Origin: Candidatus Heimdallarchaeota archaeon
GTDB taxonomy: Archaea > Asgardarchaeota > Heimdallarchaeia > Hodarchaeales > Hodarchaeaceae
Direction: 5' to 3'
DNA: 44,036 bases
Assembly (NCBI GenBank): GCA_048881705.1
Contig: JBHLSH010000025.1
Coordinates: forward strand, 1-44,036
Each line of letters opens with the position of its first letter. The stretch's first letter is position 1. Made by a program: the position numbers and the translations under genes. The notes beneath the pieces are model-generated. The model was not told the origin of the DNA, did not search any database, and saw only the letters and a program-made list of their open reading frames with translations. This document shows, piece by piece, positions 10,883-41,960 of the stretch.

Positions 10883-13495
10883 TTAATAACCTTCTCTTCG
10901 TTTTCTTACGAAATAAACACCTGCTGCAGCTGCAACTCCGATTCCTACAACTCCACCAACTAGTAGTAGAGCATCTAACGGAAAAGGCGGGGTTAAACCG
11001 CCAGCCAACATCTCAGGAGGAATGATTTCAGTAACAATCAATTGATTATTGAATACTTCCTGTTCGCTGGCGTTGGCATCGTAAGCCGTGTCAATCTGAA
11101 ACTCCAGGTTCGGTATATTCAGTTTGGTGATCTCTACTCGTAGTGTTGCGTTGAAGTACGGTGGTACCTGAGGGCCATTCCATTGTCGTTCAAGATCGAC
11201 AAACAGATACGATGTACCTGAAACAGTCAGAATCAGGAGAGACCGCCACTCATACGCAAGACTTTCATTCTCAAAAGTTCCGATCTGCGTCCCAAAAATC
11301 TCCAGGGATTGTAAATTACCCCCATGTATATTGATCCCCGCTTCGTTGTAGAAGGTCGCATTTAGAAAATCGCTCGGATCGTTATCGGGGGTGTAGTTTG
11401 AGTGGTTGCCTTTAAGGAACACTGTTATGTTGTAGATGCTGTAAGGATCCAACGTTAGAGGAATCCCATAAAGGTGGTCATCATCTGGAGAGTATGTATC
11501 ATCGATCCTAAATTCTGTCGTGGCACTAATCGCTGATAATGGAATGAAAAACTGTTGCCCTGAATACAGATTGGCTGTCGGAATGTTCGGTACGAACGGC
11601 GATAGACTCCCCAAGGCATTGATAGCGGTTGCAGATGGATTCAAAGCTACATTTGTACTAACAGTCAGACTCGCTGAAAATGTATCGAGTTGATCTAAAG
11701 TCCAGTTCCGCGCTTGAAATGGCCTGATCATCAGGATCGGTCTTTCATATTCCCGTGTGGGGAGCAAGGCGTTAATGATGGTGTCGTTATAATCCCAAGC
11801 TTCCCAAACATTGGTGGAATTCTCGTTTCCGAACCAATCGCTATTTGTCTGTGCACTGATTAGTTCGTTATATTTGCCAATGAAGGTCCATTCGTATAAT
11901 ATCTGCTGAAGCGGAAAAACATCGTCAGTAGTGGAAAGGTTTATCCAGTTTAGTTGATTGCGGACTATCGGAAGCTCAATTGCAAACAAACTGTCTTGAT
12001 TTACCTGAAGGGTTCCTGGTTGTTGAATTGGAACCGTAGTGAATCGGATTTCTCTTCCTAATGTGCCTGCCGAATCAACCGTAATTGCATAAGAGCCTGC
12101 AGGCATATATCGCCAATCCGCCACATTGCCAATGTCTTCAACAGTATCGCCATATAAGTTACCTGTGTTTGGACTAAAGAAATTGTCGCTTGTAACGTCT
12201 ATCCATTGATCAGGATAGGCCCCTGGAATGTAAAATGTAAGATCGAAAGTTTCTGTCCAATTTATGGCCATCATAGACTCTGTACCGAGTGTGAAAGTGT
12301 AATAAATGTTCTCCTCCAGCGTTGTATTCGTGTTTAAAGGTAATGGCATAGTTTCATAAATTGTGGTCGGAGGTATCTCTTGATAAAAGATCGAATATTG
12401 GCCATTGGTTTCACCAGGTGAATATAAGACCAGAGTGGCATTTTCCGTTTCTCGTGCGCGGATAACCATTCCGTCTTGGTCTATACTGCCCGAAATTTCT
12501 TCGTAATGATCACCAATTAAAAATCGAACTGGTTCAGCGGAAGAAACACCTGGCCTGACGTCTTCCATATCAAATATGGCACTTAATCGGTAGAATTGAT
12601 CCTTTACCAACGGTACATCAAACATTCTTATGCTGAAGAAATCGTACTCTGGTTCAATCAACTGATCCGTGGCTTGATCATACTGCCAAGGTTCTCCTTG
12701 GCTTAGTTCTCCATTAATAAGGGTGTTCGCATCAAGAGCAGGCAACGAAGTTGGGAATGTCCAAGGGTGCGGAGTCAGAGTAACAATAGTGGAGCCATTT
12801 GTTGCTAGCGTAAACGTAAGTAGACTCTCATTTTTGGGAAAAATGGGATAAGTCATTTCATTTTCAGGCATACCAACGATATATCCCGGGGCTGGCGGAT
12901 TTGCTTGCTCAAAGTATAATATACCCCATACATTAGTAGCTGTGAAAGAAACATCAAGGTAGAAAGGATCAGAACTCTCAACAAAACCGGAATATAACAC
13001 GTTTTGCTCGGCGTAAAATGTGGATGAATAGTCCATATGTAGACTAAGCGGTTTGGTTATTGACTGATTGAATGTTGGATTAGCGTCTGTATCAATTCTT
13101 ACTGCTCTTGGATACGGGGTCCCAGGGATAAAATCGTGATTACTGTCACGAGAGCTGTTTTCTAATAGCTGCACCTCTCGTTGGTTTGGGATGAGGTCTC
13201 CGCGGGTTAGTGAGAATGGAGTGATCTGGCTATCTCCGAGTGCATCTGCACCAGTTGTTGTATAATATACCAAATTTGTACTGGTACCCCAATATTCAAT
13301 ATCCCGATAACTTGTTCCAGGCGGGAGTATATAATAATCCCAATCGCCATATGTTTCTGGAGTGAATGTATCTTGAAGTTCTCCTGTTTGGATGATCGGT
13401 ACCTGGCTTGGTGACGATAGAACCGATGAAACATACATTAGCGATATTAGGATTATGGAAATTAGTGTAAATCGTATTTTTTTGTTTTTTACCAT
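10883..13495 (-). CDS. Large type I membrane-anchored surface glycoprotein (870 aa)
   Basis: N-terminal signal peptide (MVKNKKIRFTLISIILISLMYV), beta-rich acidic ectodomain with many N-X-S/T sequons, C-terminal TM (LLLVGGVVGIGVAAAAGVYFV) and basic tail RKRREGY. Confidence 0.85.
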   Translation of the reverse strand: MVKNKKIRFTLISIILISLMYVSSVLSSPSQVPIIQTGELQDTFTPETYGDWDYYILPPGTSYRDIEYWGTSTNLVYYTTTGADALGDSQITPFSLTRGDLIPNQREVQLLENSSRDSNHDFIPGTPYPRAVRIDTDANPTFNQSITKPLSLHMDYSSTFYAEQNVLYSGFVESSDPFYLDVSFTATNVWGILYFEQANPPAPGYIVGMPENEMTYPIFPKNESLLTFTLATNGSTIVTLTPHPWTFPTSLPALDANTLINGELSQGEPWQYDQATDQLIEPEYDFFSIRMFDVPLVKDQFYRLSAIFDMEDVRPGVSSAEPVRFLIGDHYEEISGSIDQDGMVIRARETENATLVLYSPGETNGQYSIFYQEIPPTTIYETMPLPLNTNTTLEENIYYTFTLGTESMMAINWTETFDLTFYIPGAYPDQWIDVTSDNFFSPNTGNLYGDTVEDIGNVADWRYMPAGSYAITVDSAGTLGREIRFTTVPIQQPGTLQVNQDSLFAIELPIVRNQLNWINLSTTDDVFPLQQILYEWTFIGKYNELISAQTNSDWFGNENSTNVWEAWDYNDTIINALLPTREYERPILMIRPFQARNWTLDQLDTFSASLTVSTNVALNPSATAINALGSLSPFVPNIPTANLYSGQQFFIPLSAISATTEFRIDDTYSPDDDHLYGIPLTLDPYSIYNITVFLKGNHSNYTPDNDPSDFLNATFYNEAGINIHGGNLQSLEIFGTQIGTFENESLAYEWRSLLILTVSGTSYLFVDLERQWNGPQVPPYFNATLRVEITKLNIPNLEFQIDTAYDANASEQEVFNNQLIVTEIIPPEMLAGGLTPPFPLDALLLVGGVVGIGVAAAAGVYFVRKRREGY

Positions 13496-18115: not shown

Positions 18116-20554
18116 GTGTATAAAGTAATGTCACTTGATGGTTTAGCAAGAACAATGAATCTAAATTTTCAGGAATCCAAAATATATGCCTTATTACTCG
18201 CTTTAGGTCAAATAAGTTTTGGTGAGATCGTCCAACTTACCGAATTCACACCTGAAGATACTTCACGATCATTAGAGAGTCTAAAGAACATGGGCCATGT
18301 TCTAGAGGTTTCGGGAATAACTAATCGTTACCAGGCACTTATTCCATTCAAAGATTTGGAAACATCAGCCAAGGGAATTATTACAGAAGCCGAAGATACT
18401 ACTGGAGAACTGGATGCATATATTGGAGAAAAAACCGGGGTAATTCGCAATCAGATGAATGATGAATCTCAAAAGATTTCCAAAGGAATAATTGCAGCTC
18501 AGGCAGCCGTGAAACAAGCTGAAATGAAAGGAGAAGGAGATACTGAGGCGCGGATTGCACGATATACATTAGAAGTTGAACAAGCTACCGACCAAACGAA
18601 AAACGAAATCGCAGCTATTTTCCAAAGCAAACAATCAGAACACTCAGATGTCTTGGAACGAGTTAAGACCCAGTTCAGTCAATCTGCTAAGCAGATAGGT
18701 GATAACCTTCATGATGTCAATAGTAGTCTTCGATCAAAATATAATGAAGGTTTTACAGCTTTGAAGGAACAAGAAACGCTTCGTAGTAGCGAACTGACGG
18801 CCAAGCTTCAGGAATTAGCCACGAGTTCTCAAGCTGCATTATCAAAAGGTATAGAAAATGTCCAATCCTCCATCGCGAAAGCTGGAGACACTCTAGCTAA
18901 ATCTGTCGATGATCAAAAGAACGCTTTATCCTCCTATCTAGTTCAAGTGTCAGAGGGTGTTAAAGCAAAGGCTGTACAACTGAATGAGGTAAGTGGATCT
19001 CAGGTTAGTTCTTCTCTGAACACCAATACCGAAAATATACGACAGCGATTAGAATCAAGTAAAACTAGTGCTGTTGAGGTTTTGACAGGTGCCGGCAATT
19101 CTGTCAAAGACGGGACTACAGAATCTCTTCAGAGTTTGAAACAGACATTATCAGAAACTCTTACCGCTACGCAGACCCAACTTAACGCTATGATTAGCCA
19201 AGCCCAAGAAACTCTATCTCAACTTATTACCCAGGTCGATGGGACTGTAACTCAAACCCAAAACCAGATTCAGTCGAATCTAGATCAGTATTCAGAAAAA
19301 ATATCCTCCGAGGTGGATACAAACGTACAGAGGGCTTTGACCGACACAACATCACTTCACGATCGAAGTATTCAGGAAGCGCTTTCCTCCAATGAATTGG
19401 CCCGTGATGAAGTCACGGCGGCTTTTAACGCCTTTCTAGAATCAGCTGATTCCACATTGACAGAATTCAGAGCGAAAACGCAACAGGATATTTCTGCAAC
19501 AGTTGCTACCCTGAGGGGCGAAATTAATTCTCAGGTTGGATCTTTTTCAACTTCTATGGCACCTCAAATACAAATCCTAAACGAGGAGTTCTCGAAGCTG
19601 AAATCTTCATTATCAGTTTCCCAAACTGAATCTCTCGAGTCTTATCTTTCGACTCTTCAAGGAATGACCGAAAGCGTTGAACAACGCCATCAAGAAACGC
19701 AGAATCATATTACTCAAGCGATTGCTGCTCTGCAAGAAACAATTGAGCAAACAATGAATCAGATCCACCAGCAGTTTGTTGCGTACGATCAACAATACTC
19801 AGAAGCGCTTAATAGTTCTGCCATAAAGAATAGCGAACATATAATCGCCCAAACAGAGGAACTCAAAACTAGAACCATTGGGGTGGTTAATGAGCTATCT
19901 CAAGCTACATTACAGACACTCACAGGTATTGAAAGTCTTATTTCCACAGGTATCGACGCAGAGATCGCAGCATTTGAAAAAGGCTTCACTGGATTCACGG
20001 AAAAATTCCAAGAGGTTTCTAGAAAGACAGATCAAATGTTCCAAAGCTATATAGGTAGCCTTCGTCAACTTTCCACAGCTGCTACTACTATTAAGCGCCC
20101 AGAAGTACAGACTGCTCCAATTTTCTCCAAAGCGGCAACCCTTGATTACATTAACCAGATGTTTAATAGAATGAAGGGGGGTTTGACGCTTCTGATTCCT
20201 GATCCTCAAGAAATCCCCATCGAGAGTATCATGGCCACCAAGAATCACCAACGAGTTCAAGTTGTTTCAATCATAGATCCGGTGACTCATTCTGATATAC
20301 TGAAAAAATTGTTCCAGAAACCTAATGTCCGTGTTAGAAGTGTAGATCCATCTCGTTTTCCCGGAGTGGATCGAAATGTTGCAGCGGATCGAGATGGAGA
20401 AGAGGTTATAATTGGCGTTGTGGAGGATTCTGGAGAAACCGTTTCAGTTGCCAGCGAATCTAGAGCCTTTATACAACTCATGGGGAAGATCGTGATTGGA
20501 GGCACTTTTCTTGCCCAAAGTACGGAGATAAATCGTGCTCAAGTCGGGATGTAA
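18116..20554 (+). CDS. TrmB-like winged helix + long hendecad coiled coil + TrmB/PLD-like C-terminal domain
   Basis: N-terminus LNFQESKIYALLLALGQISFGEIVQLTEFTPEDTSRSLESLKNMGHV...RYQAL is a TrmB wHTH. About 590 aa of Q/S/T/E-rich helix follow. The C-terminal alpha/beta domain (INQMFNRMKGGLTLLIP...AADRDGEEVIIG) resembles the TrmB effector-binding fold. No Walker A. Confidence 0.75.
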   Translation: MYKVMSLDGLARTMNLNFQESKIYALLLALGQISFGEIVQLTEFTPEDTSRSLESLKNMGHVLEVSGITNRYQALIPFKDLETSAKGIITEAEDTTGELDAYIGEKTGVIRNQMNDESQKISKGIIAAQAAVKQAEMKGEGDTEARIARYTLEVEQATDQTKNEIAAIFQSKQSEHSDVLERVKTQFSQSAKQIGDNLHDVNSSLRSKYNEGFTALKEQETLRSSELTAKLQELATSSQAALSKGIENVQSSIAKAGDTLAKSVDDQKNALSSYLVQVSEGVKAKAVQLNEVSGSQVSSSLNTNTENIRQRLESSKTSAVEVLTGAGNSVKDGTTESLQSLKQTLSETLTATQTQLNAMISQAQETLSQLITQVDGTVTQTQNQIQSNLDQYSEKISSEVDTNVQRALTDTTSLHDRSIQEALSSNELARDEVTAAFNAFLESADSTLTEFRAKTQQDISATVATLRGEINSQVGSFSTSMAPQIQILNEEFSKLKSSLSVSQTESLESYLSTLQGMTESVEQRHQETQNHITQAIAALQETIEQTMNQIHQQFVAYDQQYSEALNSSAIKNSEHIIAQTEELKTRTIGVVNELSQATLQTLTGIESLISTGIDAEIAAFEKGFTGFTEKFQEVSRKTDQMFQSYIGSLRQLSTAATTIKRPEVQTAPIFSKAATLDYINQMFNRMKGGLTLLIPDPQEIPIESIMATKNHQRVQVVSIIDPVTHSDILKKLFQKPNVRVRSVDPSRFPGVDRNVAADRDGEEVIIGVVEDSGETVSVASESRAFIQLMGKIVIGGTFLAQSTEINRAQVGM

Positions 20555-23079: not shown

Positions 23080-25887
23080 TTGATCATCTGGGTGATATTA
23101 CGTATGTTTCACAATAGATTTTCCGAGTATTTAATGATTATAATAATTGGGGTAAATTCCTTCATACTAGCTATGGATCTAGCTATTTATGGCAATGTTT
23201 TGGCTTTAAATCAGAGCAATAACAATACACAAAGTGTTAATTCGCCCTTCTCAGAGAAAGTGAAAAGGAGAGCTGTAATTGGAGACACCTACAGGTATCT
23301 AAGCGATTTAGTCTCAATGAGACGGAGGATTGGTGAAACCGGGAAATCATGGAGTATTCGGGATGACTTCAGTACCGCAAATGATGCGGAGCAGTTTTTA
23401 TCAGATTTTTCACCGAATTTTATGAAGATAAATGCGGGCCCATACCTTCCTCACGCGCCTATCTACATAACCAACGATGCTGGTTTTACTAATCCCGCGA
23501 ATAACTTTACGGGGAAAGGTACTGAAGCAGATCCCTACACACTTACCGGATTTAACTTTACCGATAATACAGGAACATTGATACATATTCAAAACACTAC
23601 CGCTCATTTCGAAATATATGATAATATTCTAAATGGGATTGACAAGTCCAATACTGGTATCTTCCTTAGTGAGGTTATAAATGGAACAATTCTACTGAAT
23701 TTTGTCCAAAATGCAAATTATGGAATCTATTTACAGAAAACCAATGGCTCGTATCTGCTGAATAATTCGATCGTTGAGAGTTTGTACAATGGAATATTTC
23801 TTGCGGATTCGCCGCTTAACACTATTGGCGGAAATGACGTGATTGCCAACTCTGCGCACGGTATATCTGTAACAGCTTCTTCATATACAAGCATCTTTGA
23901 AAATGATGTACTAAACAATAGTTTGCACGGGATTTCAGGTTTTAATTCATCGTTTCTTACTCTAAAGGATAACTACGTCGAGAATAACAAGGGGAATGGA
24001 ATTGTACTCATGAGATCAGCCAACAGCGTTTTATCAAATAACAAGATAATGAGCAATGGCCAAAACGGGCTCGGGGTCGGGTATATCAATGACAGTTACA
24101 TCGATAGCAACATCATTGCCTATAATTCTGAGAATGGCATTACGGTGGGAATAAGTACGAATAACCTGGAAATTGTGTATAATGACGTGTTTGATAACCA
24201 TGGATGGGCTGGAATCGAACTTGGGTTGTCAAATGGAAGCAAGGTGAGTGATAATCTCGTTTACAACCACGATCTTGGCAATGGAATTACTCTTGGTTAT
24301 TTTGGCATGCCGCCCACCGATACCTATTTCGAAATTCACTATAATTCCATTTACAATAATAGATATAGAGGGATTAGGGTCGAATTTTCGAGTAGTAACA
24401 TGATTTCCTACAACGATGTTCACGATAACATGGAGGACGGAATTGATCTATATAACGCAAGTAAGAACGTAATTGAGTTTAACTCATTCTACAGGAATAC
24501 TTGGACCGGAATTTTGCTTATTAATAGCTCACATAATAACATTAGCGATAATTTTGTCGAGTCCAATCTGGCTCAGGGAATCTTCCTTGAGAACTCGAAT
24601 GATAATCTGGTTTATTTCAATACGATTTATGATAACTTTCTGGATGGGATCGCCCTCGTCAACTCTCATTATAATTTCATTGACGATAATGACGTGTCTT
24701 GGAATGGTCATGGAGGTTCTGGATCAGCGATCAGCCCTGCTACGCGATCCAGTACGAAACAGGCTCTACGTGGCAGTGGCATCTTTCTTGATCCCTCTAA
24801 TTACAATACTATCGTAAATAACTACGTAACGAATAATGGAGAAAATGGAATCTACCTGTTCGATTCAGATGTTACCCAGATTGCCAATAATATTGTTTCA
24901 GATAACCTAAACGGGGTTTTTCTACAGGAATCAGCATACAATAACATTTCTGAAAATTACATTTTCGATAACGGTCAAGAAAAGCAAGGTACGGTTCCTG
25001 CAGATCTTGATACAAGTTTTGCGATCAATCAGGCATTAAGGGGAAGTGGGATCTTCCTGGATCCTTCAGATTATAACAATATTTTCGGAAATCATGTATT
25101 TGGTAATACTGGGCACGGAATCTATCTCATTGACTCCACGGAGATTACGGTATCTGATAACGTGGTTTCAGTGAATGGTCTTTATGGGATTTACCTTGCC
25201 AGAACACTAACCACTTCAACAATCACGTTTAATGATTTTGGAGAGAATAATCTATTGAATCCGAATGCAGGGTCTCAAGCCTTTGATGATGGAGACGGCA
25301 ATGTTTTTGATATGAACTACTGGAGCGATCTTCAAGAAGGGCAAACTTCCTATGGGATCGATGGCTTATCGGGGAACTCAGACAATAATCCTTCCTTCGT
25401 GCCACTCCATTTTCCTGAAATTGAGCTTTACCCGCCTGTAGTTCAGTACCCTAATGGCGGAGAAACTCTCTCTGACATTGTGTCCGTTCAATGGAAGATG
25501 TCATATGCTGAAACTATTACATATTGGGTTTTCTATTCTGACGATGCGGGGATCAATTGGCAATTCATTCTTACGGGACTCGCAGGTCAGGTGATCTTCC
25601 CAGGGACTGTGACTGACTTCTCAATTGAATGGGACACAAAGAGTGTAGGTAATGGCGACGAATACTTGATAAAGGTTTTAGTAATGAATTCCGAGGGGTT
25701 CCTCACCCGTGATCTATCGGATGGAGTTTTTTCGATTAATAATACAGAATCAAATGTTGGTACTAGGACCACAACTACAACAACTCAACCTAGAATATCA
25801 CCAGGGTGGTCCATAGGCATATTACTCTTCACGATGGTCGTTACAATTGCTATATTAAGAAATAAATACAATAGCAGGAGACTATAG
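23080..25887 (+). CDS. Secreted right-handed beta-helix (NosD/PbH1) surface protein with Ig-like domain and CTERM anchor
   Basis: Many N-x-I-x-x-N...GI-x-L repeats, PNGGE Ig-like module, Thr-rich linker, SPGW + TM + basic tail. Exact start uncertain. Confidence 0.9.
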   Translation: MIIWVILRMFHNRFSEYLMIIIIGVNSFILAMDLAIYGNVLALNQSNNNTQSVNSPFSEKVKRRAVIGDTYRYLSDLVSMRRRIGETGKSWSIRDDFSTANDAEQFLSDFSPNFMKINAGPYLPHAPIYITNDAGFTNPANNFTGKGTEADPYTLTGFNFTDNTGTLIHIQNTTAHFEIYDNILNGIDKSNTGIFLSEVINGTILLNFVQNANYGIYLQKTNGSYLLNNSIVESLYNGIFLADSPLNTIGGNDVIANSAHGISVTASSYTSIFENDVLNNSLHGISGFNSSFLTLKDNYVENNKGNGIVLMRSANSVLSNNKIMSNGQNGLGVGYINDSYIDSNIIAYNSENGITVGISTNNLEIVYNDVFDNHGWAGIELGLSNGSKVSDNLVYNHDLGNGITLGYFGMPPTDTYFEIHYNSIYNNRYRGIRVEFSSSNMISYNDVHDNMEDGIDLYNASKNVIEFNSFYRNTWTGILLINSSHNNISDNFVESNLAQGIFLENSNDNLVYFNTIYDNFLDGIALVNSHYNFIDDNDVSWNGHGGSGSAISPATRSSTKQALRGSGIFLDPSNYNTIVNNYVTNNGENGIYLFDSDVTQIANNIVSDNLNGVFLQESAYNNISENYIFDNGQEKQGTVPADLDTSFAINQALRGSGIFLDPSDYNNIFGNHVFGNTGHGIYLIDSTEITVSDNVVSVNGLYGIYLARTLTTSTITFNDFGENNLLNPNAGSQAFDDGDGNVFDMNYWSDLQEGQTSYGIDGLSGNSDNNPSFVPLHFPEIELYPPVVQYPNGGETLSDIVSVQWKMSYAETITYWVFYSDDAGINWQFILTGLAGQVIFPGTVTDFSIEWDTKSVGNGDEYLIKVLVMNSEGFLTRDLSDGVFSINNTESNVGTRTTTTTTQPRISPGWSIGILLFTMVVTIAILRNKYNSRRL

Positions 25888-33985: not shown

Positions 33986-35413
33986 ATGACATCTATTATC
34001 AAAACAATCGTCCAAAACGAGGTGGGACGATATATTTTGGATCCTGCGGAGTTAACCAAACTCCCAATCTCCCAGGTGTTGGATCTGGATGCTAGTATAG
34101 TTGAACAGATCCAATTAGAGGCGCTTAAGCGTCGCTTTGAATACTTCCGACCGCGAATCCAGGCCCTCGAAAAGCTGGCCAATGAACAAGGTATCCATGA
34201 AATCGAAACCTTGGATGATGCTGGGCCGCTGCTTTTTCAACACAGTGTCTATAAGAGTTACCCGCTTTTCCTGATCGAAAAAAAGCGTTTTGACAAACTC
34301 ACTGAGTGGCTTCAGAAATTAACCACCCACGACCTCTCCACAGTTAATACGAAGGGAGTAAAAACCATAGATGGGTGGTTACAGGCAATTGAAGATGCTA
34401 CGGACATCGAAATTGTTCATAGTAGTGGGACGACAGGGAAGCTCTCTTTCTTGCCCCGTTCTGCCTCGGAGATGGCAGCCTATACTGATGGCTTTTACTT
34501 ATTGCTGGAAGGAATGACTGGGAATAATTATCGCAAGGTTCACATGCCCGTCTTTTTCCCAGGCTATCGAGATGGTAGACAGTTACAGCAACGAGTTATC
34601 GGGAAATTCGGGCCCGAAATCGCAGGTTCGAACGAGGAATTCCATACTGCCTTTGATGGCTTCATGAGTGCCGACTTTATGAGTTTGGCAGGTCGCGTGA
34701 AAGCGGCCAAAGCGAAGGGTGAATTGGGAAAACTTCAATTGATCAAAGCTTTGGCTCACAACAAAGGTGAACTAATCAAGATGAAACGGCAGGCTCCAAA
34801 GATGATGGAAGCGTTCATCAAAGAACTGGTGACTGAGTACGCTGGAAAAACAGTGTTATTCATGGGTGTGTGGTCAGTCATTATTGAAACTGCATTGGCA
34901 GGCTTGGAACAAGGAGCTTCCAACCTGTTTGGCCACAGTACAGGGATCGTGACTGGGGGTGGTATGAAGAACTATCAACCCCCTGAAGGCTGGTACGAGA
35001 AATGTCTAGAATTTTATGGTGTACCATTTATTCGAGATTCCTATGGAATGACAGAAATGACCGGCGGTGGCTGCATTCCCTGTGACCACAACCATTACCA
35101 TCTCCCTCCATGGTTGATCCCTTATTTGTTAGATCCTGAGACAGGCAAAGTTCAACCACGGAATGAAACTAAGACTGGACGTTTTGCGTTCTACGATCTT
35201 CTAACGGAAAGCTATTGGGGAGGCTTCATCACTGGTGACGAAGTGACCATCCATTGGGATAATGATCCCTGTGGGTGTGGGTACAAGGGTGTGTGGTTCG
35301 ACAAAGGGATACAAAGATACAGCGAAAAGCAGGGCGGCGATGATAAGATCACCTGTGCCGGCGTTCAGGAGGCCAATGAGGCCTTACTCGACTTTTTATT
35401 AGAGGAAGATTAG
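33986..35413 (+). CDS. LuxE-like acyl-protein synthetase
   Basis: Adenylate-forming motifs HSSGTTGKLSF, TGGGMK, DSYGMTEM, ITGDEV, and a C-terminal Cys (KITCAG) in the position expected for the LuxE acyl acceptor. Confidence 0.8.
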   Translation: MTSIIKTIVQNEVGRYILDPAELTKLPISQVLDLDASIVEQIQLEALKRRFEYFRPRIQALEKLANEQGIHEIETLDDAGPLLFQHSVYKSYPLFLIEKKRFDKLTEWLQKLTTHDLSTVNTKGVKTIDGWLQAIEDATDIEIVHSSGTTGKLSFLPRSASEMAAYTDGFYLLLEGMTGNNYRKVHMPVFFPGYRDGRQLQQRVIGKFGPEIAGSNEEFHTAFDGFMSADFMSLAGRVKAAKAKGELGKLQLIKALAHNKGELIKMKRQAPKMMEAFIKELVTEYAGKTVLFMGVWSVIIETALAGLEQGASNLFGHSTGIVTGGGMKNYQPPEGWYEKCLEFYGVPFIRDSYGMTEMTGGGCIPCDHNHYHLPPWLIPYLLDPETGKVQPRNETKTGRFAFYDLLTESYWGGFITGDEVTIHWDNDPCGCGYKGVWFDKGIQRYSEKQGGDDKITCAGVQEANEALLDFLLEED

Positions 35414-35460
35414 TGATCGCCCCTTCCTCGTCTCTTTTTTCATAAATGAAGTGTTGAACT

Positions 35461-36954
35461 ATGACAGCGATTATTCAACAAACGCAAAAACCAATGGTAC
35501 GCCCAGAGACAGCCCGTCCGAAATCGGTTGCTGTTGAATTCGAAGTACCCTTAATTATAAGAGGTAAGGCCATTTTTCCAAATTCAAACGATCCAGTATT
35601 CGGCGGAAGAAATGGTAGTGCTCAGTTCTTAACTCCAGATGCAAAAAAATATGTTCATCGCATCGGACTCTCAGATCCTTCACAGCTCAGGGATCTCTAC
35701 AATCTCTCGATTGAGAACATATTGGATTTCATTCACGATCTCGGGGAAAGACTGGTTTTAAGTGAAAACGAATACCTCCGAGAAGCTTTCAAGTTGTCGG
35801 TAGAAGCAAGTGGTCTCACTAAAAGCGTTTTGGCCGCAACCTACCATGCGCTCCCACAGTTCTTGAGCAAGCCTCACATCAAAGACATGTTGGAACACCG
35901 TATTGGAATACCTTATCTGGAAGAATGGGTTCCTACCAGAATGTTGGATGGACGAACTGTATCGATTCGGGCTTTTGGAGCTCGAACTGTTCACGTGATA
36001 GCGGGAAATGTTCCATTAGTGGCCGCGGGTACACTAGCTCGTAGCTGTGCCACACGTTGCGATACAGTAATCAAAACGCCTTCCAACGACCCCATTACTG
36101 CCTCCGCTCTTGCCTTGACTATGATCGAAATGGAACCTAACCATCCCATAACCAAACACGTGAGTACCGCTTATTGGAAAGGTGGCGATGTTGAGTTTGA
36201 AGAACAGTTCTATACTCCCCAGTACGTTGAGAAAATCATTGCCTGGGGTGGATTTGCGGGTATCAAACACATCACGCGATACCTGCAACCAGGTATAGAC
36301 CTAATCACTCTGGATCCCAAGTTGTCTACCTCCATAATTGGAAGAGAAGCCTTTTCAAATGAAGATACGATTTATTCAGCGGCGGCATTAGCCGCACGTG
36401 ACGTGGGGGTGTTTAATCAAGAAGCTTGCGTATGTGCTAGAGTGATTTATGTCGAAAGCGGCACTGATCCTGAAGGCATCGAAAAGGCAAATCGTTTCGG
36501 GCAATACCTTTATTCTGCGTTGGCAAATCTTCCCCCAGAGTTTTCAACCCCTCCAAAGACATTCAATGCCGAATTAAAGAATGAAATTGATGCAATTCGA
36601 CTCACGGATGATTTTTATCAAGTGTACGGAGGTCAGGACAATGAGGGTGCCGTCATCGTCTCGCAATGGGATGAACCAGTTGATTTTTCAGCACAGCTTT
36701 GTTCACGGGTAGCCAACATCGTTCCCATTGATTCCATTGAAACAGCTATCGAATCGACCAACGCATACACTCAGACCGCAGGAATATATCCAGAACGCTT
36801 AAAGAAAACAATTCGGGATGATCTTATCATGCATGGTGTACAACGAATAGTTTCTTTGGGACACGCTGGTAATGGAAGCTTTGCGACCCCTCAGGATTCT
36901 ATCGAACCCTTGAGGCGGATGGTCAGATGGGTGATGGACGAACAAACATTCTAA
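35461..36954 (+). CDS. luxC: LuxC-like acyl-CoA reductase (aldehyde-forming)
   Basis: VHVIAGNVPLV, IKTPSNDP, IIAWGG, catalytic-Cys segment FNQEACVCARVIYVE, GVQRIVSLG...PQD...PLRRMVRWV. Confidence 0.85.
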   Translation: MTAIIQQTQKPMVRPETARPKSVAVEFEVPLIIRGKAIFPNSNDPVFGGRNGSAQFLTPDAKKYVHRIGLSDPSQLRDLYNLSIENILDFIHDLGERLVLSENEYLREAFKLSVEASGLTKSVLAATYHALPQFLSKPHIKDMLEHRIGIPYLEEWVPTRMLDGRTVSIRAFGARTVHVIAGNVPLVAAGTLARSCATRCDTVIKTPSNDPITASALALTMIEMEPNHPITKHVSTAYWKGGDVEFEEQFYTPQYVEKIIAWGGFAGIKHITRYLQPGIDLITLDPKLSTSIIGREAFSNEDTIYSAAALAARDVGVFNQEACVCARVIYVESGTDPEGIEKANRFGQYLYSALANLPPEFSTPPKTFNAELKNEIDAIRLTDDFYQVYGGQDNEGAVIVSQWDEPVDFSAQLCSRVANIVPIDSIETAIESTNAYTQTAGIYPERLKKTIRDDLIMHGVQRIVSLGHAGNGSFATPQDSIEPLRRMVRWVMDEQTF

Positions 36955-40542: not shown

Positions 40543-40592
40543 CTAGCCTCCAAAGTGATTTCCTCAGATAATGACTAGACAGCCGTTTATGA

Positions 40593-40620
40593 CCCTGAAA
40601 GGTTAGGTCTGCTTTCAGGG
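40593..40620 (-). terminator. Hairpin overlapping the stop of the CTERM gene
   Basis: Perfect 9-bp inverted repeat CCCTGAAAG-N10-CTTTCAGGG. Confidence 0.45.
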
Positions 40621-41328
40621 CCGGCTTTTCCTTTTAAACTTCTTTAAGAGAAGAACTAAAAGGAATACACCAATTGTGGAAATGATTGGGAATCCGGAGG
40701 ACACATTTGGTGATTCTAAGGATGTGGTTGATGTCGCTGGATAGAAACCCGAAAGATAAGAAATGGGTAATCTGCCAATGAATTGATCTAGGATAATCCT
40801 AAAATCGGGAGTCTGCTGATTTGGCTCGAAATCTGTTGTAATTTGAGCCAATACAGTCGTTTCCAAGTTTTGATTGTTTATATCTGAAAACTCAATGAAG
40901 AAAAGGGTCAATCGCTCATTTTTAACTGTAAAATGTTCGTTTTCATTTCCCGTTTGCCAATTTTGGGCATGTCGATAGGGATCCCCAAGCATCCAAAAGA
41001 GATGGTATTGTCCATCCACGGTCTGCATGAACAACATTGCAGCTTTGATCACAAAGGGATTTTCTTGAATTCCAAGAACAACCAAAACGGCGAGTAATTC
41101 ATTTGATTCCAACTGAGAGGTGGTATTCAAATCATATTCCAACGTTATTGCTATAGTTGGCCCCGTTTGAACTACTCCAACAATCCCGACATTTTTCTCA
41201 TTGGTACCCGCTAATGTACCTTCAAAGGAGTTGGTATTGACGTTTGTTCCAGCGGATAATATCGGAGCATTCCAAAGCACGAGGGTGAAAACGAAAACCC
41301 TCAGTAATAGAAATGAAGTTTTTTTCAT
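40615..41328 (-). CDS. Secreted surface protein with CTERM-type anchor (237 aa)
   Basis: Signal peptide MKKTSFLLLRVFVFTLVLWNAPILSA, beta-rich core, Ser/Thr linker, SSGF + TM + KKFKRKSRP. Confidence 0.82.
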   Translation of the reverse strand: MKKTSFLLLRVFVFTLVLWNAPILSAGTNVNTNSFEGTLAGTNEKNVGIVGVVQTGPTIAITLEYDLNTTSQLESNELLAVLVVLGIQENPFVIKAAMLFMQTVDGQYHLFWMLGDPYRHAQNWQTGNENEHFTVKNERLTLFFIEFSDINNQNLETTVLAQITTDFEPNQQTPDFRIILDQFIGRLPISYLSGFYPATSTTSLESPNVSSGFPIISTIGVFLLVLLLKKFKRKSRP

Positions 41329-41348
41329 TACCGCTCAACATTCGCTCA

Positions 41349-41960
41349 TTAAACCGCTGAGCCTCCGCCCCAAGTAAGCCAACCTGATGCCACATCGCCC
41401 ATGGGATTGCCTGCTGAATCATACTCAGTATAGGTCCACTGGATTTTCTCATAATTGAAAGATAATGTTTCAGTCGGATGGTCGTCGACTAATCCATAGC
41501 TTTGAACAGAAGTGATTATCACATTTTGGAGTTCAATCATCAGGAATTTATGTGAGGAGCTTCCTCCAGACCAGAATTCCAACGTTACTGCTGGGATAGC
41601 GGCTCCATTTGCACATTTTTGAGTTATTATAGGCGTCGCCTTATCCACAGTTTTGGTAATTCGAAGGGGGCTATGTTTCACGACGCCACTAGCGCGTCCT
41701 GTAGCCACATCATAGGAACCTTGGATGTTATGTGAGTATGAGAGCACTTCAATCCAATTTTGATGATTTGCATCTTTGGACTCACCGTCGATCCCATCTA
41801 TATGGAGGAACATGTCCGCTGCTAGACTTGTAGGGCCATTCACTTCGTCAGTTGAAGCATTGACAGGGGGAGCGCTTAAAGCTTCGACTAAAAAAGCAGA
41901 AGCGGTACCCAATAGGAGTAGTGAAGGGATGATTATTCTTATCAAAGAATTCGTTTTCAT
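41349..41960 (-). CDS. hcp: Hcp (type VI secretion tube protein family) with N-terminal signal peptide
   Basis: Residues ~48-203 match Hcp1: ADMFLHIDGIDGESKDANHQNWIEVLSYSH, HSPLRITKTVDKATP, IELQNVIITSV, PTETLSFNYEKIQWTYTEYDSAG...SGW. Preceded by MKTNSLIRIIIPSLLLLGTASAFLVEALSA. Confidence 0.92.
   Translation of the reverse strand: MKTNSLIRIIIPSLLLLGTASAFLVEALSAPPVNASTDEVNGPTSLAADMFLHIDGIDGESKDANHQNWIEVLSYSHNIQGSYDVATGRASGVVKHSPLRITKTVDKATPIITQKCANGAAIPAVTLEFWSGGSSSHKFLMIELQNVIITSVQSYGLVDDHPTETLSFNYEKIQWTYTEYDSAGNPMGDVASGWLTWGGGSAV

Follow-up and report, generated by a model that had tools for sequence, protein, structure and literature searches.

The window analysed here is a stretch of 44,036 nucleotides from Candidatus Heimdallarchaeota archaeon (assembly GCA_048881705.1, contig JBHLSH010000025.1), in which two open reading frames (ORFs) follow each other on the minus strand: 41960..41349, coding for an Hcp of 203 amino acids (aa), and, after 20 bp, 41328..40615, coding for a protein of 237 aa that is referred to below as the partner. 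Hcp is usually taken as the hallmark of type VI secretion. An Hcp that serves a type VI secretion system (T6SS) lacks a signal peptide and assembles in the cytoplasm. The 20-bp spacing is consistent with a two-gene operon, and a scan for promoters and terminators gave signals no commoner than those in shuffled sequences. The original prediction had a hairpin closing the unit. A 10-bp stem does lie over the stop codon of the partner gene, yet it has only modest support as a possible terminator or stability hairpin (z −2.2, 5 of 200 shuffles equally good, U-tract absent). The features of the locus are listed in Table 1.

Table 1. Features of the Hcp–partner locus (positions in the window)
Feature	Position	Strand	Remarks
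Hcp export leader, codons 1-35	41856..41960	-	basic n-region, long hydrophobic h-region, V-N-A
Short linker and complete Hcp/TssD domain	41349..41855	-	profile match and predicted structure
Intergenic gap, 20 bp	41329..41348	-	11-58 bp where measured in homologous loci
Partner signal peptide, about codons 1-26	41250..41328	-	hydrophobic N-terminal segment
Partner β-sandwich domain, about 154 aa, 17.5 kDa	40747..41208	-	no Pfam family, weakly DOMON/CBM9-like
Partner Ser/Thr/Pro linker, SGF motif, transmembrane helix, basic tail	40615..40746	-	Heimdall-CTERM-like anchor
Stem-loop, 10-bp stem, overlapping the partner stop codon	about 40592..40621	-	z −2.2

The Hcp leader and the partner protein

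The product of ORF 41960-41349 is a true member of the Hcp/TssD family. It matched the full PF05638 profile with residues 51-177 (E 4.1e-37, 127.8 bits against a cut-off of 23.5) and TIGR03344 with 85.6 bits (cut-off 58.9), and its AlphaFold2 (AF2) model, with a mean predicted local distance difference test score (pLDDT) of 90.5, has the Hcp β-barrel fold with one helix. Solved Hcps (4W64, 7FCF and 1Y12) were retrieved with this model by Foldseek at a best E of 3e-15 and a template modelling (TM) score of about 0.8. The invariant K-x-x-D-x-x-x-P helix motif is kept, and an arginine of the lumen, R100, which is uncommon among other Hcps, is present in 24 of 30 paired copies.

In the leader before the domain, a basic n-region is followed by about 20 hydrophobic residues and, at positions 33-36, by a conserved V-N-A-S motif. 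Such leaders, which were called from hydropathy and conservation, were present in all 30 Asgard loci examined (maximum 15-residue hydropathy 1.97-3.1). In six pairs of close homologues the ratio of nonsynonymous to synonymous change (pN/pS) was 0.24 in the leader (codons 2-35) compared with 0.22 in the Hcp domain, and by this measure the leader is under purifying selection. Signal peptidase would probably cleave after V-N-A. It is also possible that the leader is an uncleaved anchor, with N34-A-S doubling as a glycosylation sequon and the h-region long enough to anchor the protein. The candidate downstream start, Met50, was rejected because it aligns to Met5 of Pseudomonas aeruginosa Hcp1, inside the first strand, and because several homologues have no ATG at this position; the selection on the leader also speaks against a mis-called start. 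Thus, the description of a conserved Hcp domain behind a signal or anchor and a linker was borne out, and the translation start stays upstream of the hydrophobic segment.

The partner has an N-terminal hydrophobic segment and a β-rich domain, which a Ser/Thr linker connects to an SGF motif followed by a hydrophobic helix and a basic tail. Among 60 full-length representatives, 51 have the hydrophobic N-terminus and 52 the C-terminal helix with the basic tail. The domain, which carries a sequon at N68, was modelled by AF2 as a β-sandwich (pLDDT 86.7). Family profile searches gave no match to the ORF, none of the 80 members of the family matched a Pfam family, and Foldseek returned nothing from the PDB at E up to 0.001. 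The best structural matches were the glucodextranase C-terminal domain 1ULV (Z 6.2, root-mean-square deviation 4.0, 117 residues aligned), the ethylbenzene dehydrogenase gamma subunit 2IVF_C (Z 5.7) and the CBM9 domain 1I82 (Z 4.8). All of these values are middling, the best of them is tied with immunoglobulin (Ig) domains, and the identity is only 3-9%. Its neighbours in the Atlas were Glucodextran_C, DOMON and CBM9 (feature score 0.89, TM 0.50-0.55 to CBM9-type clusters), and the modelled domain is described here as weakly DOMON/CBM9-like. A diverged Hcp or tube paralogue was considered and rejected for the partner, with a profile–profile probability of 0.2%.

The partner had been described as a secreted, CTERM-anchored β-rich protein, and the signal-like N-terminus, the β-sandwich and the tripartite tail agree with this. 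The anchor class is less clear. Heimdall-CTERM (NF045529) matched 13 of 39 partner homologues weakly (E up to 0.1, best 3.8e-5), while the copy in the window gave no score in spite of its visible tripartite C-terminal layout, and archaeosortase (PF09721) had no match in the source genome (91% complete, control positive), which counts against a PGF-CTERM substrate of archaeosortase A. With no Heimdall-CTERM match for this copy and no archaeosortase, the tail may just remain embedded in the membrane.

Conservation of the pair and absence of injection machinery

A single Hcp gene is present in the source genome (3.96 Mb, 90.9% complete, 7.5% contamination). TssB, TssC, VgrG-type proteins (PF05954), sheath (PF04984), PAAR (PF05488) and gp25/TssE (PF04965) were all missing from it, with positive controls, in a genome-wide search for these six families. 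TssC was likewise found in none of 400 genomes of the phylum (controls positive), the VgrG-type, PAAR and sheath families in none of the 22 genomes of the genus, and TssC and VgrG-type proteins in neither of two single-contig Lokiarchaeia genomes. The absence of TssB/C, VgrG, PAAR and baseplate genes, first noted in the window, was thereby extended to the genome, where no complete T6SS or extracellular contractile injection system (eCIS) locus turned up. The locus itself fails membership of a T6SS and of an eCIS or tailed provirus: it has no sheath, spike or baseplate, and its flanks are variable cellular genes. The nearest named homologues are labelled Ca. Thorarchaeota and Ca. Hodarchaeales; these labels, given by submitters, disagree, and by them the source is an Asgard archaeon, probably of Hodarchaeales. 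Database labels such as "T6SS effector" and "tube protein" on Asgard Hcps are misleading, because no T6SS was found in these genomes.

Hcp was detected in 26 of the 400 genomes, single-contig genomes among them, and in 18 of the 22 genomes of the genus. In the Hcp families f1, f19 and f32 the partner gene lies directly downstream and on the same strand in 28 of 28 cases, at a distance of 11-58 bp where this was measured, so the neighbour, on whose conservation the original prediction had been made to depend, is conserved. Conversely, 28 of 30 partner matches in the 400 genomes adjoin an Hcp gene. The other two are one half of a gene split by a run of N in the genome G065 and a weak, spurious match in an unrelated protein; a free-standing paralogue of the partner was found neither in the 400 genomes nor in the source genome. 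Distant partners were checked because the partner profile had been built partly from Hcp neighbours. In the exhaustive search, which yielded 73 representatives, the independent distant partners had an Hcp upstream on all four informative contigs; P0156, P0158 and P0170 fell outside this set, their contigs being too short or having no DNA for the upstream gene. The genes flanking the cassette differ between loci. Five genomes have two divergent cassettes, each with a partner of its own, and in the four compared the two Hcps are 26-41% identical. In a quick, unrooted Hcp tree, from which no donor is claimed, a branch with 98% support in the Shimodaira–Hasegawa-like approximate likelihood ratio test (SH-aLRT) separates all 27 paired Hcps, together with five other rows, from the rest. 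These comparisons of sequence support the view that the partner is a dedicated, conserved companion of the exported Hcp in Asgard archaea.

The cassette is also present in the cultured Ca. Lokiarchaeum ossiferum B35 (NEF87_000442/000443, locus L026) and in Ca. Harpocratesius repetitus (L024); a single-protein scan of the named genomes found one locus. Most of the leader is missing from the Harpocratesius Hcp as called by NCBI (MCF2140055.1, 163 aa). In G065, the halves of the split partner gene (L003 and L074) lie 1.36 Mb apart, which is probably a scaffolding error. Downstream of another cassette, E2-CBASS-like and ThiF genes and a HEPN/nucleotidyltransferase pair were seen at L076:4770-5810. 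In a further Asgard family, f6 (loci L069:1673-5252, L070:179-2918, L071:1206-4556 and L072:2505-5126), the genes that follow the Hcp code for proteins of 700-980 aa with PKD/Ig repeats, one of them also with Kelch repeats.

The predicted complex and its alternatives

A complex of two Hcp copies and one partner was predicted with a score of 0.63, compared with 0.21 for the best of three controls. Of 80 solved complexes, 58 reach the mark that this score passed, as do 2 of 110 mismatched pairs; these counts are only rough here, where the alignments were our own and three chains were modelled. Between runs, at least 85% of the contacts were shared, the partner had a pLDDT of at least 81, and both Hcp copies presented the same face to it. 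On the Hcp side the predicted interface is made up of L73, S74, S76, R100, T102, S151, Q153, L157, T163, T165 and S167, and in an alignment with 1Y12 it covers the equivalents of L28, A29, S31, T59, S115 and T122 of P. aeruginosa Hcp1, the residues of the inner ring that are reported to be needed for the cargoes Tse1-3 (PMC8262886). The model thus places the partner on the inner, cargo-binding face of Hcp. The Hcp columns of the interface are more conserved than the remaining ones (p 0.008), and the two most conserved columns of the partner, W124 and E146, both lie in it. The volume of the partner domain, about 21,000 cubic Å, is less than half of an assumed lumen of 40 x 40 Å. The roles of base, cap or chaperone had been proposed for the partner; its predicted position is that of a peg at the inner face and not of an outer base or cap.

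Relatives of the Hcp bear on the number of subunits. Three proteins with six tandem Hcp domains were found (P0172, P0173 and P0175), together with the signal-bearing P0176, which has three. By their domain count the former are apparently single-chain Hcp hexamers, and no T6SS genes were seen beside them where their contigs were available. Domain numbers of six and three agree with a hexamer; together with the conserved motifs they suggest indirectly that the Asgard Hcp keeps it as well. The six-domain proteins, including P0178 and P0179 and P0175 at L068:4678-8286, are 1050-1200 aa long with Planctomycete-like N-termini, and P0172 gave a weak, below cut-off match to a Planctomycete extracellular motif. 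The P0176 locus (ENA ERZ24794656) has tandem Hcp genes of 546 and 570 aa, the second with the signal and the three domains, and adjoins a cluster of thiolase and DUF35 genes of a kind typical of archaea; the two Hcps might form a 3+3 heterodimeric ring.

For the cassette we propose that the exported Hcp ring wraps the tethered partner as a T6SS Hcp wraps its cargo, forming a two-gene module of the cell surface, a proposal that we consider about equally likely to be right or wrong. Both proteins would be exported by Sec, as their conserved leaders suggest. The C-terminal helix would keep the partner in the membrane, with the Ser/Thr linker holding the 17.5-kDa β-sandwich outward, an architecture that can be read directly from the protein. 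Released Hcp subunits are predicted to bind this domain by their inner face and would close into a hexameric ring around it, as around a T6SS effector. A precedent is Hcp3, which is monomeric when dilute, binds its cargo in non-hexameric form and encloses one Tce1 step by step from an initial heterodimer, with an inner diameter of 45 Å (PMC13323088). The product would be a ring of about 8.5 nm, probably of 6:1 composition and pegged to the cell surface, on which further rings could stack at the far face only. In place of VgrG and the baseplate, the tethered pseudo-cargo would capture the exported subunits and nucleate and anchor the ring. The fuller statement, that Asgard archaea including Ca. 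L. ossiferum have Sec-exported Hcp rings around such a nucleating and anchoring pseudo-cargo, perhaps at the foot of a short non-contractile stack, and that this is one case of a wider use of extracellular Hcp hexamers, independent of T6SS, among prokaryotes, is in our judgement slightly less likely to hold than to fail. As to the use of the ring, our guess is that it serves the envelope as a structural part or for contact, with a binding domain displayed or sheltered by it.

Several results weigh against this proposal. The interface on the partner side is overall no more conserved than the rest of the domain (p 0.41), and a covariation between Hcp R100 and partner E131, which touch in the model, concordant in 27 of 30 pairs, was discarded as the joint loss traces to one clade and one event and is not significant. 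The Hcp and partner trees are congruent (rho 0.63), as linkage alone would make them. Since Hcp–cargo complexes have already been solved (9QPE), the pass of the complex may partly reflect likeness to them; in the two-copy model, for which the geometry between the copies was not reported, the inner sheet is also the most exposed surface. Four leader-bearing Hcps, those of family f6, are followed by the large PKD/Ig-repeat surface proteins and not by the small partner. Because these are unrelated to it, and because bacterial exported Hcps have no such partner, a peg would not be a universal need of exported Hcps. Finally, the cassette genes are not listed in those supplements of the L. ossiferum papers that were consulted.

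Among the alternatives, a heterodimer of the HilE kind fares best, although we regard it as unlikely. Here no ring would form: the exported Hcp would act as a monomeric chaperone or co-receptor, bound to the partner 1:1 or 2:1. HilE is a short-loop Hcp homologue that is monomeric and binds HilD 1:1 (PMC10696396), and the extended loop has only 10 residues in the Hcps of L024-L026 (Lokiarchaeia, including L. ossiferum), about 7 fewer than the 17 of the window Hcp and compared with 15-19 elsewhere. This alternative stays alive because the short loop marks the monomeric HilE, and complex prediction does not separate a ring from a sandwich. On the other side, the window Hcp keeps both the full loop and the helix motif, six-domain fusions occur among the relatives, and the partner is placed on the lumen face, whereas the binding modelled for HilE involves a subunit-like interface.

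Somewhat less probable is a non-contractile extracellular nanotube or filament, in which the first ring, plugged by the partner, carries a stack of further rings and the tube serves adhesion, contact or transfer. The intact Hcp fold and the full-length extended loop of most copies would permit it, as this loop supports stacking in Burkholderia pseudomallei Hcp1 (PMC4650826), and L. ossiferum has many surface structures to which no protein has been assigned (PMC9834061). However, no VgrG-like nucleator, on which tube formation in the T6SS depends (PMC8262886), and no co-conserved gene for a tip, cap or length control was found, the loop is shortened in the three Lokiarchaeia copies, and a partner that plugs the base leaves no passage, so a conduit is ruled out. 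The nanotubes or filaments first envisaged are thus unsupported so far. A link to the helical filaments on the protrusions of Hodarchaeales HC1/SC1 was also considered and found unsupported: at 15-25 nm these filaments exceed the width of a bare Hcp tube, and they are reported to set HC1/SC1 apart from L. ossiferum (bioRxiv 10.1101/2025.02.26.640444), which has the cassette.

We think it more doubtful still that the two proteins do not bind each other and are merely co-expressed at the surface, Hcp as a lone ring or ligand binder and the partner as a lectin-like DOMON/CBM9 protein. Signal-bearing orphan Hcps without a partner exist, the folds nearest to the partner bind sugars or heme, and anchored surface genes are common in the source genome, with at least nine Heimdall-CTERM matches over the cut-off; against this stand the absence of any free-standing partner from the genomes searched and the predicted complex, which exceeded its controls and used a known binding face. 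It is very improbable, in spite of the incompleteness and contamination of the genome, that the locus is left over from a T6SS, an eCIS or a provirus, comes from a contaminating contig, or codes for a normal cytoplasmic Hcp whose start was mis-called. These readings are largely dismissed by the missing TssB/C, VgrG, sheath, PAAR and gp25, the spread of Hcp through the genus and into single-contig genomes, the selection on the leader and the common branch of the paired Hcps.

Relation to known systems and significance

The Asgard Hcp resembles that of the T6SS in its full-length domain, its fold and its extended loop, and its S76 and T102 are identical to S31 and T59 of Hcp1. It differs in the export leader, the archaeal host, the lumen R100 and the lack of sheath, VgrG, PAAR and baseplate genes in the genome. 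The closest parallels to the cassette are Hcp1–Tse2 (PMC8262886) and Hcp3–Tce1 (PDB 9QPE, PMC13323088), in which the gene pair and a small protein of lumen size recur, predicted in our case on the equivalent positions of the inner face. In contrast to these cargoes, the Asgard partner is Sec-exported, membrane-tethered and unfireable, and assembly would take place outside the cell; neither a toxin domain nor an immunity gene was recognised for it. According to the model, the Asgard pair would work most like an Hcp–cargo pair transferred to the cell exterior. Salmonella HilE (PMC10696396) is likewise an Hcp homologue out of T6SS service with one dedicated partner, but it is cytoplasmic, monomeric and regulatory, whereas the Asgard Hcp is exported and mostly long-looped.

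That signal-bearing Hcp-like proteins might exist in other prokaryotes had been anticipated, and they were found in bacteria and in other archaea, as bacterial orphans, as clusters in Nitrososphaerota and Bacillota and as PEP-CTERM fusions. They share with the Asgard Hcp the export signal and the lack of T6SS neighbours in the loci seen, but their anchor is fused or absent, while the Asgard pair has a separate dedicated partner, whose family was found only in Asgard genomes and unnamed contigs. The PEP-CTERM Hcps were noticed by Howard et al. (2021) and then removed from their tree. No paper on exported Hcps or on the Asgard pair was found in the literature searched, which excludes most subscription journals. 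One bacterial signal-bearing orphan Hcp (L064:6001-10499) lies right after an F-type ATP synthase operon, and the genes after it code for a peptidoglycan-binding protein of 1233 aa and for a CAP protein.

Elsewhere in the window, a LuxE-like acyl-protein synthetase and a LuxC-like acyl-CoA reductase are encoded side by side at 33986-36954 (+), with no luciferase noticed among the neighbouring ORFs scanned. In an 812-aa protein at 18116-20554 (+), a long region of repeats is apolipoprotein-like, and the N-terminus by eye resembles a TrmB-type regulator. Two large proteins have a signal-like N-terminus and a C-terminal anchor: that at 10883-13495 (−) has no Pfam match and that at 23080-25887 (+) has β-helix/NosD repeats.

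The surface structures of L. ossiferum, still unassigned (PMC9834061), have been discussed as a means of partner contact relevant to the origin of eukaryotes. NEF87_000442/000443, with the protein accessions UYP44157 and UYP44158, provides a named candidate whose size and shape are known and which can be sought in the existing proteome of this organism (PXD074767, cited in PMC13716822) and in its tomograms. Furthermore, the cassette can be rebuilt from two small recombinant domains and tested in a cultured relative. If the proposed arrangement is true, the cargo-loading step of the T6SS has come to serve for fixing a ring on the cell surface, and part of a bacterial injection weapon would have become a cell-surface fitting.
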